Assembly: GCA_030704615.1 (NCBI GenBank)
Contig: CM060731.1
Coordinates: 89,652,001 to 89,716,000 of the forward strand
Length of the DNA stretch: 64,000 bases
Origin: Takakia lepidozioides
Lineage: Eukaryota > Plantae > Bryophyta
Reading direction: 5' to 3'
Shown here: positions 17,921 through 22,508 of the stretch, one piece after another
Layout: each line of letters opens with the position of its first letter
Position numbering within the stretch: the first letter of the stretch is position 1
Made by a program: the position numbers and the translations under genes
The notes under the pieces: generated by a model
What the model was told of the DNA's origin: nothing
The model's database searches: none
What the model saw: only the letters and a program-made list of their open reading frames with translations

Positions 17921-18374
17921 TGATGAAAAAATTGAGTGTGTTGACGCACTCAGTTCTCGGGGGGGGCACCAAAACCCGGGGTGAAAATCCGGACCCGCAC
18001 CTGTCGTCGATGATCATCCTGAAATCATGATCATGAAGAAATTGAGTGCGTTGAGGCATGTAGCGGTGGATCATAGGAACATGATGCCCACATTAGCTGC
18101 ATTCTCAGGGGTGGTGGCTTGGGGTGGTGAGCTCTTGGAGGGAAATAGTCATGCTAATGATAGGGCACCACCTGATGAGGACAAGCAATTGGCATACTAG
18201 GCTGAGTTGCTTCCTCATGTGCATGCTCATAGCCCACTGTGGGGTACAGTTGGGAATCTACATCGGATGGCACATCAGTGTGTGCAGCGGGCTTGGCAGG
18301 AGGCATTCCCATTGATGGGTGAGGGGAGTTCAGTGACATCACCTGGACCTCCTCAGTTAGCTCCTTAGGACACA

Positions 18375-19393
18375 GTGCCCATTACCTGGCAATCACCTGA
18401 CGCAGGGATTTGTTTGCTAGACCTGTTTGGAGGCATGAGCATTGGGCTTGCAGGAGTGTTGCAGGCAGGGATTAAAGTACAAAAGTACTTGTATATGGAA
18501 AAGGATGAGATAGCTCGGCGTATTTCTATCACATTTCTATGCGCCACATTGTCTTGCTCACACACCAGTATCCTGAGTTGTTGCCTATCTCGGCAATTCA
18601 AGGGTACCAAAAAGCCTTGCCAACAGACATTACTTTGCTAGGGGCGGATGATTTGGACCGGCATGGTGCCATTGGCTTGGTGATAGCCGGATGGCCTTGC
18701 CAAGGACACTCTCCCGCAGGTCATGGGAATGGCTTGCATGATGCAAGGTCGCATTTTTTTTGGGAGATGTTACGAGTGTTGCGTGATTTGCAGACGAGAC
18801 AAGTACAACCTCCAGCCTACATCTTGGAGAATGTTCTTCTTATGGGGGACTCTCGGGCCAGGGTTATGGCCAATGTGCATCAGGTGCGGTCTTGGATTGG
18901 ATCGGCGGTGGTATTGGATGCAGCTACAGTGGGGTCACGGGCACATGGGCCTAGGTTGTGGTGGATCAATCTTGCACCACCAGAGTTGCTCAAGAGAGTC
19001 TATGATTCCATTCAACGGCCACCAAACCTCACGGTTGAGGGCATTTTGGACCAAGGGAGGCAAGCACAAAGAGTGTGTCATGATGACCATCCACCTTTGA
19101 CGATGGTCAATTGAGTGGGGCAGCCACATGCGGCCTTGCCTACACTCATGAGCTTTCCATCATCTCATGCTTTTCGAGACAATGGTCCAGGGTTGATTTG
19201 GGACAGTGTGCTACAGCAATTGGTGGAGCCCAGTGCGGGTGAGCAAGAGCGGGCAATGGGGTTTGCCACATGCACTACAGTTGTGCGATCTTTGTCAGAG
19301 GCATCACGCCGATATGTGTTGGGTCAAGCAATGAATCTAGATTGCTTGACATGGGTCATTAGCTTGTGCATGGCTAAGCAACGGAGGTTGTAG
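18375..19393 (+). pseudogene. C5 cytosine DNA methyltransferase domain (DNMT3/DRM-like catalytic fold) within the retroelement; one frameshift and one internal stop
   Basis: Motif I LLDLFGG, motif II YLYMEKDEIAR, motif IV VIAGWPCQGHS.AG, motif V GLHDARS.FF, motif VI YILENV, motif VIII SRAHGPRLWWINL, motif IX EQERAMGF and motif X RRYVLGQAMNL, all in canonical order. Confidence 0.9.
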
Positions 19394-20309
19394 ACAGTGG
19401 TGGCTACTTCTGCACTCCCATTGGGTATTGCATGGTTGAGGCAGTGAGTGGGGGCGAGCACATGATCATGGGGTGCAAACACCCATGACAGATGTGGGAT
19501 GAGATGCGGAAAGAGAGAGTCATTGGATCTCTCAAGCAGCAGTATGAGGAGTGGGGAGAGCCATACACGGAGGATTAGTTGGAGGCCAAGGTGGCCAAGG
19601 CTCTTGAAGAGGTTGAGGATGTTTCTTTTGCGGATGATGTTCTCAAGGTGGCTATGGCGGAGCAAGTGGAGGCTACGCCACAGTCAGGGTGGGCAGATAA
19701 GGCCTAAGAGGTTGCTATCTAGCAACCAAAGGATGCGTCTCCTATCTCCAAACCTGGTGTACCCAAGGACGTTGCAGTCACTGAGGACAATTGGGAACCA
19801 GATGTTGGACCTACGGTCACCGGAGGAGAGAGACTGAGGATCCAGTGATTTCTAAGGGCTTACAGAAATTGCTTTGCCTTCGGTTTGAAGGATTTGGGGA
19901 GTTTGAAGGGCCAGAAGATGCGTATTGTGATACGCCAATTTTTCGAAGGTCATACATGTATAGTGACATGGAGAGGTCTTTGATCCAATCAAAGCTAGAT
20001 TGACGGAGTTGTCAGGCGGGGAGTATGCCTCGGCAACGGTGATGCCAGCTAAGAAGGATATCTATGGCAATTGGACAGAAAGAAAGATGTACGGGGACTA
20101 TGTGTACCTGCAGCAGACAACACCAACGACCTTGGATGTCACAGCAGGGCGTGTGATTCTAAGGGTCAGGGAGGTGTTGCATTCAGCCTTCAGGAGTGTT
20201 GATTCTGGAGGGTCGGGATGGCATGGTATGGAAGGACCATGTGCGCAATTGTGTGTCATGTCACCTTCCCCATGTGGATGGGAAGATAGATCCCAACCTT
20301 GCAATGGTA

Positions 20310-20450
20310 CCTGCTATGTGGGCATGCTGGTGGTACCGCGACCATGTTGGTGTGTGACAAATGCTGAAGGGAGTGGCACATCGGATGCTTGACACCGCCA
20401 CTTGAGGAGGTTCCTAGTGGAGAATGGTTGTGTCCACGATGCCTTTGACA
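20310..20450 (+). pseudogene. PHD-finger remnant at the C-terminus of the retroelement polyprotein
   Basis: TMLVCDKC*REWHIGCLTPPLEEVPSGEWLCPRCL is the second half of a Cys4-His-Cys3 PHD; the first Cys pair is degraded. Confidence 0.85.
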
Positions 20451-22508
20451 TAGGTAGTGGGCATGACAATGATGGAGTTGAGAAGTGATCCAAGGTCTAG
20501 CTGGTGTGAGCTCAACGCCATGGATACTCAATTGAAGATCATGGTTGCAGACAAACGACTAACGATGGGGCTCTCTTTGCACCCGGCCTCTTGATCCATA
20601 GCCTTTAGAAAATTGGGACATGTACGTTGAAGACCAAATGATGATCTTATTGGGATGGATATTTGTCAATTATCCGGTGTTAGATGGACCTAATCACCAG
20701 CTAGGGGGGCGATTGTGGCATAACTTTCTAGGATTGTGTGCGTAGAATGTGTGGTGGACAACGACATCTGTATGTTGTGGCACGATGCTTAAGTGCACGA
20801 CAAATTGAAATCTAAGCCAAGTGCAATCTCCTATGTATCCAAGTGCTTCTCCCATGAAGAGGCCCAAGTGCGACCTCCAGTGTCCAATGTCATCTAAGTC
20901 CAAGTGCAATCCCCTATGCATCCTGAGACCCTGCAGTTTGGTAGATTTCCACATCATTGTTCCAGCAAAGCCCACCTTGCTATTTTTGCAATCTCCCTTG
21001 TCAAGGCTTAATATATTGATATATCCACTTTGCAATTTTTTGAGAACTTCCAGCGACCAAAAGTACTTGAAATTCCAAATCTCCCACGTGAAGGGCCAAT
21101 CACTGCTCCAGGAAAGCCCACTTTGCTAATTTTCCCGAATTTTTAGTGACCAAAAGTACTTGAAATTCCATATCTCCCACACCGCAGGTCCAAAAGATGG
21201 TGCCCCACCATAATATCAGTTAGGGCGTCCTTCCATGTGGGAGGAGCCCGACCCGAAAAAAAATGAGTTCGCCGGGTGTTAAAAACAAATGGCCGGGTTC
21301 CCTCGAGCATTTCCACTGTCATGTGGGGCTCGGCGGCTGAGTAATCGTTTTGGACTTTAGCGTGACGTGATAGAGGGTACTCCAGCTAAGCGTGACTTTA
21401 GCACGACGTGGCAGGTAAATAGAGACTGCTTTCAATTCACGGGGTCGTCCGCCGAGCTCTCTTCCCATTTTATCAGGCTGTGCTACTAACACGGGAACTC
21501 GGCGACCAGGCCCCGCCGCCCCATGCATGGAAGTGAGAAGTGTACCCGGCCATTTTTGTCACTTTTCTCTCTTAAACGGTGGGCCGGGTACATGGAAGGC
21601 TGCTCTTAGTGCCTTGTTTGTATGGCGATTCTCAGCCACATAGAGCACTATTTCCACGCAAGCCTTGTGCGTCCTATGAAAGTAGCCCCTGCCAAGTGAC
21701 ATATGAGACCTTGAACGCTCCGAGTTTGATTTCAACCAAAACTAATCTATGTATATGGCATATTTAGTATTTTTTGGGGGACGCGGGCTTTTGGCTGCAG
21801 GGTAGGTGCCCTAAAACTAGAGTATGCAAATAAAAATAAAAATGATGTGCACTCCGCGACGATGAAGCGCTTCGCGTCGATGAAGCTCGTTCCAGGCAGA
21901 GCGTCTACTCCACGACAGTCCACTCCCCCATACTCCACGCTCCTTGAATGTCATGGTCAAGGAGATGGCAAGCCAACATGGCAAAGACGTGTGCACCTGT
22001 TAGCTTAAAGAACCTGTTTCAGGCCCATTAGCTTTTACACCAAACTACTCTATCTCAGTTAGTGAGATGCACTAACTATTGGGAGTGCTAGTTAGTATAA
22101 CTTTAAGTGGGGCACCTAAACCCAATAGTTAGCTTAAATGACACTAAGGGCCCTTATTATTAGCTGATCTACACACTTGACGCTTTGGGCATGACCGGAG
22201 CCGGTTGGGCTTTGAAGATTTTGTTGAAAACCAAATGCGTCGTGTCCAGATCTCACCACCAAGTTAGAATATTTCATGTCTACCGAATTCAACTTTGTTC
22301 TTTATAAAAGTTCAAATCCGTGGATTTCAACGCCTTCTAGGAAGGTTTCCCTGCTTCTGATTTGTCTTTAATTATCCTTCTTAATTTCGCCGATGGTTCA
22401 ATATGGACCACTTGCCCTGTTTGGGCCACGCTTAGAGCCCACCTCTTGTGGAATATTTGGAAAGCCAGATGCGCTTTCATTTTCTCTGGTAAGCCTGTTT
22501 GTGTCAAC

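Follow-up and report, generated by a model that had tools for sequence, protein, structure and literature searches.

A DNMT3-type methyltransferase closing the Gag-protease frame in a Ty3/gypsy family of mosses and liverworts: a decayed copy from Takakia lepidozioides and its relatives

Introduction

Retrotransposons with a DNMT3-type cytosine DNA methyltransferase (DNMT) have been reported from Symbiodinium and Klebsormidium nitens only, according to the passages compared of PMC5890265. Why transposons keep the silencing enzyme of their hosts has been an open question since 2018, and these known carriers are hard to work with. The element of K. nitens, KnitGypsy-Dnmt3 (de Mendoza et al. 2018, PMC5890265), belongs to the gypsy elements and encodes, in the Pol open reading frame (ORF) together with reverse transcriptase (RT), a Dnmt3-like domain that is intron-free, unpermuted and under purifying selection. 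Judged by figure legends only, its repeats are split in a DIRS-like manner (A-coding-B-A-B, legend of Fig. 4c); the capture of the domain was placed in the K. nitens lineage. SymbioDIRS-Dnmt3 of Symbiodinium likewise combines a Dnmt3-type domain with A-B-A-B split repeats, carries a DIRS tyrosine recombinase, and its domains perform de novo CG methylation in yeast (PMC5890265, passages). Here we compare with these systems a Ty3/gypsy copy in the moss Takakia lepidozioides, located in a stretch of 64,000 nt (GCA_030704615.1, contig CM060731.1, 89,652,001 to 89,716,000, forward strand), henceforth called the window; all positions are counted within it.

Concerning further related systems, non-flowering plants possess host DNMT3 genes (PpDNMT3a/b) with an unpermuted DNMT3-type catalytic domain and a C-terminal DUF3444 (PMC6453930, in the parts compared). 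The moss gypsy elements of the Tcn1 and Tf1-Sushi chromoviruses, which carry a chromodomain, lack a tRNA primer site, and self-priming is predicted for them; the compared text of that report does not contain the word 'methyltransferase' (PMC6317226). A Chlamydomonas gypsy with a PHD finger appears in passages of PMC9940879. PMC12344493 and bioRxiv 2026.05.21.726589 give 'streptophytes' without naming land plants in the passages compared, and the chlorophyte EpiLTR DNMT of the latter belongs to a different, DNMT4-sister clade. PMC9289625, as far as compared, is an angiosperm screen, and passages of 10.1101/363937, PMC11982613, PMC12885004, PMC9033089 and PMC6673714 were also compared. In the literature searched we found no account of a gypsy-DNMT3 element of land plants or chlorophytes, though subscription papers, figures and preprint supplements may hold one.

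In this study, we show that the Takakia copy belongs to a gypsy family of mosses and liverworts in which the DNMT ends the frame of gag and protease (PR) ahead of a conserved stop. The type of capture is known, but the hosts are new, the layout for expression differs and the structure of the ends is odd. The reading that we prefer, with a probability of roughly 0.6, is that the DNMT would be produced in amounts like those of Gag and would methylate newly made DNA copies of the element itself. Since Marchantia polymorpha has intact gag-PR-DNMT frames, the question comes within reach of a genetic model with methylation mutants, among them Mpmet, which de-represses many elements.

Results and discussion

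A dead copy of a multicopy gypsy family

By identity and anatomy, window 18058-20802 (plus strand, as all its parts) is a dead copy from a Ty3/gypsy family that is multicopy in the moss; its 5' part is cut off and it has an internal deletion. It starts in the linker between protease and DNMT (18058-18377), where tblastn alignments of the proteins P0005, P0002 and P0007 begin at 18078-18093; gag, PR and the terminal repeat A are missing through the cut. The cut lies at about 18058, where the copy abuts another repeat, and a 911-nt contig (run X8) that aligns from 18058 has 232 more upstream letters foreign to the window. The DNMT (18378-19390) is followed by the C-terminal tail of ORF1 (19391-19719), which contains stops and changes frame near 19427, and by the conserved in-frame stop with CAACCA (19720-19728). 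Then comes the N-terminal part of a gypsy RT (19774-20092), with 51-77% identity in tblastn with P0023, P0011 and the metagenome locus L003 (such loci bear L numbers); homologues match the RT start over 19774-20100, spread across three frames. At a deletion junction (20093-20101) the rest of RT, RNase H (RH) and integrase (IN) is gone. The segment distal to integrase (20102-20310) has 65-87% identity to L041, the post-integrase alignment resuming at 20093 and running to 20310. A PHD finger (20311-20442) with one stop shares 55-61% identity with the PHD regions of L041 and P0019, the latter's being PF00628. A polypurine tract (PPT, 20703-20713) stands before the terminal repeat B in the same context in 10/10 siblings shown, with 87-90% DNA identity. 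Repeat B (20714-20802, 89 bp, TG...CACGACA) is the right end of the element and is single here, as compared to B-A-B in complete siblings.

Stops lie at 18198, 18366, 19112, 19391, 19846 and 20365, besides several frameshifts. An earlier sequence-only reading had called the copy dead through frameshift, stops and a large deletion, and this is confirmed except for the stop at 19720, which is a feature of the family and not decay. Homologue alignments and the PPT context of siblings also bear out the collinear RT start, post-integrase segment, PHD and PPT which that reading had described. What it took for the start of a long terminal repeat (LTR) is a terminal repeat, but the whole 89-bp repeat B, with the same CACGACA as in siblings, so that the element ends at 20802.

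Matches to five siblings resume at 20093, and the upstream match of L064, L039, L060 and L031 stops at 20100-20101; in L064 the two matching blocks are 2.37 kb apart. The overlap is a 9-nt microhomology common to two Gly-Asp-Tyr codon runs, and the loss of about 2.4 kb fits a microhomology deletion, as judged from the aligned siblings. The junction is bridged by one contig of run X3. Contigs of runs X9 and X5 depart from the window at 20101 and a contig of run X1 joins it at 20093, so that undeleted family copies likely exist. Runs X8 and X9 are presumably RNA and say nothing about expression. Siblings within the host genome are known only from such short sequencing-run contigs; run X1 yields 14,275 of them on window 17000-21500, mostly 90-99% alike, which argues for a multicopy family in the host, even though this depth is no copy number.

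Contigs aligned to the window thin out beyond 20810. The high-copy repeat 3' of 20802 was considered as part of the element and rejected, since it has no B|A junction (repeat B running into repeat A) and other contigs enter at 20817 and 20879 from different sequence. The stretch 20803-21200 is a repeat of its own, present in very many copies and containing short duplications, and the right end of the element sits inside it. At the other side, the broken 5' end is bordered by a multicopy repeat at 17228-18092. This repeat contains a palindromic hairpin three times (17228, 17937 and 18047, the third cut by the element junction) and a minus-strand frame of 213 aa, in which a Cys/His pattern recalls SWIM by eye and no Pfam match was obtained.

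The methyltransferase is of the DNMT3 type

Window 18509-19111 matches Pfam PF00145 (E=1.5e-10). The C5-methyltransferase motifs, with the numbering I-X that we take to be the usual one, stand in linear order. Motifs I (18414-18434) and II (18492-18509) are in frame 3; past a frameshift near 18530, frame 2 contains IV (GWPCQG, 18689-18706), V (18731-18751), VI (ILENV, 18818-18835), VIII (18938-18964), IX (19241-19264) and X (19319-19336), with the stop at 19112 in between. The circular permutation that is the hallmark of DRM enzymes is not present in this order, and homologue alignments run through the domain without an intron. The unpermuted, intron-free enzyme of the sequence-only reading thereby holds; motif VIII is likewise present, but its first Arg is Gly in the window copy.

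A family profile searched against the Protein Data Bank found DNMT3A best (E=8e-17), followed by DNMT3C and DNMT3B (4e-13), and more weakly chains that we take to be of DRM type (4e-9 to 3e-5, best 4onj) and M.HhaI (5e-5). This profile favours assignment to the DNMT3 type. In a fold search with an AlphaFold model, itself weak (pLDDT 54), 35/35 matches shown were DNMT3. An Atlas search with P0005 left the origin unsettled, a streptophyte cluster and two mostly viral clusters being tied at a score of 0.96. Host DNMT3 is a plausible donor of the domain; the DUF3444 of the host genes was not found in Pfam scans of the element proteins P0004, P0005, P0029, P0034 and P0055.

Metagenome loci were analysed as the best 80 of 114 related stretches, which form about 62 groups at 99% identity. 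The catalytic Cys is retained in 78/79 loci covering the site, as is the Pro of motif IV (78/79), and the Glu of motif VI in 72/77; the arginines of motifs VIII and IX have decayed more often. Between families, the DNMT dN/dS is 0.14 for the window against L002, 0.12 for the window against L033 and 0.17-0.21 for three other distant pairs; these are the five pairs with measurable dS, three further pairs being saturated. The DNMT is thus under purifying selection. Among close copies dN/dS is 0.5-0.7, as expected if it mostly reflects decay after insertion, and RT values are similar.

These numbers bear on the idea that the DNMT is a functionless passenger, captured once from a host. The high ratios among close copies and the broken state of most copies would suit a passenger, but the similar RT values, the between-family ratios, which already largely refute it, and the keeping of the domain in mosses, liverworts and chlorophytes at two positions make this very improbable.

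Relatives share one domain order

A protein search with a 201-aa DNMT piece of the window matched 28 longer proteins, the best 18 at 48-69% identity. Among these 18 are eight proteins of Marchantia polymorpha, two of Calypogeia fissa and one of Sphagnum troendelagicum, a S. fallax model being next; the Marchantia and Calypogeia proteins have 60-65% identity to the window DNMT. The Marchantia cluster of P0005 comprises 18 members, of which 15 are listed. Five proteins of 1278-1281 aa run unbroken from gag through a zinc knuckle and a protease-like motif to the DNMT, and the expectation that siblings with intact frames exist is borne out by them. Pfam recognises gag weakly in two relatives (PF03732), the protease in one (PF13650) and the integrase as PF00665 (rve).

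All listed Marchantia copies are annotated as hypothetical genes, and element copies may inflate DNMT gene counts in bryophyte annotations. The male V chromosome bears four of the 15 listed copies (Mp_Vg00370, 00480, 00540 and 00690), two of them with a full-length ORF1.

Among rows with enough flank, PR lies upstream of the DNMT in 49/52 and gag in 29/31; downstream follow RT (41/45), integrase (17/20) and PHD (16/20). The phage locus L081 is counted in these denominators, and so is the slice of the window in the case of PR and RT. The order of the relatives in Marchantia, Calypogeia, Sphagnum and the metagenome loci is gag-PR-DNMT-stop-RT-RH-IN-PHD. The proposed methyltransferase-carrying gypsy lineage of land plants is hereby established, and relative to the stop its DNMT belongs to the Gag side, as compared to the place in the Pol ORF of KnitGypsy-Dnmt3 (PMC5890265, in the passages compared). 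In a search of a viral collection, P0003 found nothing and query A2 found one distant locus, L081, which was taken for a phage methyltransferase and omitted from motif and stop counts.

A processed host DNMT3 pseudogene beside a gypsy fragment by chance was the case that the sequence-only reading had named as refuting. The window alone would allow it, lacking gag, PR, RNase H, integrase and the left end. Order and spacing recur, however, in dozens of loci and three named genera, complete element ends are found with the same domain order, Pfam scans reveal no DUF3444, and microhomology accounts for the deletion junction; the probability left to chance juxtaposition is negligible.

The DNMT tree unites the window with other rows of bryophyte type in a clade of 12 (SH-aLRT 100), from which 16 rows of chlorophyte type are separate. 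Five RT-RH rows of bryophyte type likewise form one clade, and L002 groups with a Sphagnum protein. Both trees are unrooted and were built from element rows without host DNMT3, Klebsormidium or reference RTs, so that neither a root nor a donor nor a sequence of events can be read from them.

A conserved stop separates DNMT and RT

The ORF1 proteins of Marchantia, Calypogeia and Sphagnum terminate at one place, some 85 residues past the DNMT, and siblings 85-99 codons past it. For a survey of this stop, 53 loci with DNMT end and RT start were collected and four with insertions set aside. In the remaining 49, DNMT and RT share a frame in 35. All 35 have an in-frame stop between them (a single one in 21), and this conserved stop separates the two. 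The final stop before RT is followed by CAACC in 46/49 loci, and the window has TAG CAA CCA at 19720. The window, L033 and the Sphagnum-like family have this context in common despite differing linkers and nearly saturated synonymous sites, and this speaks for a signal. The motif CAR-YYA by itself directs readthrough in plant viruses (PMC2194720, passages). From these alignments, stop and CAACC probably form a readthrough signal between gag-PR-DNMT and RT-RH-IN-PHD.

Several observations speak against readthrough. Strict CAR-YYA occurs in only 2/49 loci plus the window, and in the main family an ATG comes directly after CAACCC, an arrangement compatible with reinitiation too. In Tca2, as far as its description was compared, a similar junction failed to direct readthrough, and a search for stable RNA structure 3' of the stop found none (z about -1.2 to -1.3). 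By readthrough or reinitiation alike, the DNMT sits on the Gag side and would be abundant.

Split repeats at the element ends

Complete siblings consist of A (339 bp), body, PPT, B (112 bp), A and B; full B-A-B right ends are found in L010, L031, L058, L060/L071, L064 and L073. They begin with TGTCATG and finish with CACGACA. Target duplications of 4 bp are perfect in 7/9 loci with both ends and have one mismatch in 2/9; among the loci, L060 and L071 are one insertion. The layout is therefore not that of two like LTRs around a body: the left end consists of A, the right end of B-A-B or a single B, and the assumption of a two-LTR lineage stands for its gypsy body only. In its ends the family resembles SymbioDIRS-Dnmt3, but it has a PPT, an integrase of the DDE type (PF00665) and target duplications of 4 bp. 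The recombinase hallmark of DIRS and Ngaro elements was not encountered in siblings, which carry the rve integrase and 4-bp duplications, no search having been aimed at a recombinase. Where Tcn1 and the Tf1-Sushi group carry a chromodomain, the window family has a C-terminal PHD, besides a DNMT and split repeats.

A tRNA-type primer site after A was looked for, and a TGG start is present in 0/19 loci. A complement of 9-16 nt at positions 164-171 of A occurs in 9/19 loci (shuffle fraction <=0.013) and is, by analogy with Tf1-type elements, a candidate self-priming site. The B|A junction is CA-GC-TG inside a palindrome, and the A|B junction repeats two letters after the PPT. The combination of split repeats with an integrase suggests that integration involves an unusual step. 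Reverse transcription might be self-primed in a Tf1-like manner from the site directly behind A, with the PPT priming the plus strand, and would then produce B-A-body-B-A. The two ends would then be joined, the A|B junction representing right end plus left end, and integrase would reopen the product at the palindromic left B|A site to give A-body-B-A-B. Single-B copies, including that of the window, would arise later through loss of A-B.

This end-joining model, drawn from the junction sequences, is tentative and somewhat short of even odds. A self-priming match of at least 9 nt at a common place is confined to 9/19 loci. The mirror form A-B-A-body-B was not found, B standing upstream of 0/18 left ends; since the two B|A sites of a 2-LTR circle are equal, a simple circle model does not explain the one-sidedness. 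The same one-sided product would result if the plus strand jumped from the right to the left end. That A-body-B is a separate integration product was considered and rejected: L021 (single B) and L073 (B-A-B) share flanks and are one insertion, so the single B reflects later loss or assembly collapse and copies such as that of the window are derived.

Ends of the form A-body-B-A-B would escape tools that detect two LTRs, which may explain why the family is absent from plant LTR surveys. The right end CACGACA (L010, L031, L060, L064; window 20796-20802) has a CpG, of which the inverted left end TGTCATG has the deaminated form; a methylatable CpG at the end to which integrase attaches is a speculation.

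A chlorophyte branch with another domain order

Homologous DNMTs (30-37% identity to the window) are present in chlorophyte gypsy elements with gypsy Pol and terminal PHD. This set comprises 158 proteins, 120 of them listed, from hosts including Tetradesmus, Enallax, Hariotina, Monoraphidium, Chromochloris and Haematococcus. Of the 128 examined, 76 show RT-RH-DNMT-IN-PHD, the others parts of that order, and DNMT before RT was seen in 0/128. Unlike in the bryophyte type, the DNMT is in one ORF with RT and RNase H, between RNase H and integrase, and it forms a separate clade of the DNMT tree. Two complete ORFs come from transcript assemblies (Tetradesmus and Enallax). P0142 and P0328 are chlorophyte-type elements under bacterial labels (a Minisyncoccia metagenome-assembled genome and Bosea sp.), likely algal DNA in bacterial assemblies.

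Gypsy elements with DNMT and PHD from chlorophytes to bryophytes argue against a capture restricted to Klebsormidium, and the lineage assumed for land plants also has a chlorophyte branch. Kinship to KnitGypsy-Dnmt3 would rest on shared anatomy; the protein searches that gave bryophyte and chlorophyte relatives returned no Klebsormidium sequence. A far-reaching scenario, which we consider doubtful as a whole, would be one ancient green-plant gypsy lineage of chlorophytes, Klebsormidium, mosses and liverworts, equipped with DNMT3 as writer and PHD as reader. On the way to land plants the DNMT would have moved to the Gag side of a leaky stop, loading particles with a cDNA-methylating enzyme, and integration would follow an undescribed route of self-priming, joined ends and a palindrome cut leading to A-B-A-B.

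What the DNMT may do for the element

In the preferred reading, low-level readthrough of the stop would supply RT, integrase and PHD, and particles would hold far more DNMT than RT. Protease would free the DNMT, which would be packaged with Gag. It would methylate CG of the cDNA before or at integration, and the new copy would enter a methylated genome already marked, while the PHD would read chromatin for choice of site. That the element's DNMT methylates its own cDNA is, by analogy with the CG activity in yeast of the SymbioDIRS-Dnmt3 domains, slightly better than an even bet.

Evidence to the contrary comes from three sides. The Klebsormidium domain was inactive in yeast, a result which its authors call inconclusive (PMC5890265, passages). 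A CG self-methylation footprint was sought in CpG observed/expected and not found, the copy having 0.42, the window 0.43 and a neighbouring copia 0.27. Moreover, only 4/38 single-frame loci have a stop-free DNMT.

The inactivity in yeast and the absent CpG footprint would equally suit a domain kept as a nucleic-acid-binding or structural module, or as an RNA modifier, without DNA methylation. So would motif IV of the chlorophyte type, which has Glu-Cys for Pro-Cys in 53/128 proteins. Such a role is nevertheless improbable, since the catalytic Cys (127/128 in the chlorophyte type), ENV and the SAM-binding motifs are kept in nearly all copies and the nearest solved relatives are DNA enzymes.

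CHG observed/expected is low in the window copy (18058-20803; 0.72) and in five siblings (0.52-0.62) as compared to 1.04 in the copia and 1.07 in the window; L033 and L065 show no CHG depletion. The low values would be in line with a DNMT that acts after integration, travelling with the integration complex or returning from later translation, and whose targets would be the insertion site, sister copies or competing elements, a self-restraint lowering the cost to the host. A benefit to the host has been raised before (PMC5890265, passages); PHD and DNMT mirror a pair of chromatin reader and writer, and the DNMT of the chlorophyte type adjoins integrase. The bryophyte DNMT, however, is on the Gag side and in most molecules would be fused to neither integrase nor PHD, and host CMT and DNMT3b can account for non-CG decay (PMC6453930, in the parts compared). 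We regard action after integration as unlikely, though less so than a role without DNA methylation, and prefer methylation of the element's own new DNA.

Neighbouring features of the window

The host genes of the window are DDB1 (about 37400-47512, plus strand), a MORN-repeat protein (25993-27042, plus) and a member of the Core-2/I-branching family (7615-8538, minus). In trees of this one gene with 15-23 rows, DDB1 is sister to Sphagnum and Physcomitrium, with support of 100/98 with a moss reference and 100/97 with a liverwort reference, which puts the window among the mosses. Pfam further identifies a decayed copia (13643-16311, plus; gag-pre-integrase, rve and RVT_2) and an unrelated gypsy RT remnant (10291-10680, minus). 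At the end of the copia remnant, 16281-17133 is a tandem array of units of about 121 bp, 74-85% alike. Another tandem array, with units of about 141 bp, occupies 507-931, and 23796-24017 is an imperfect inverted repeat of 222 bp.

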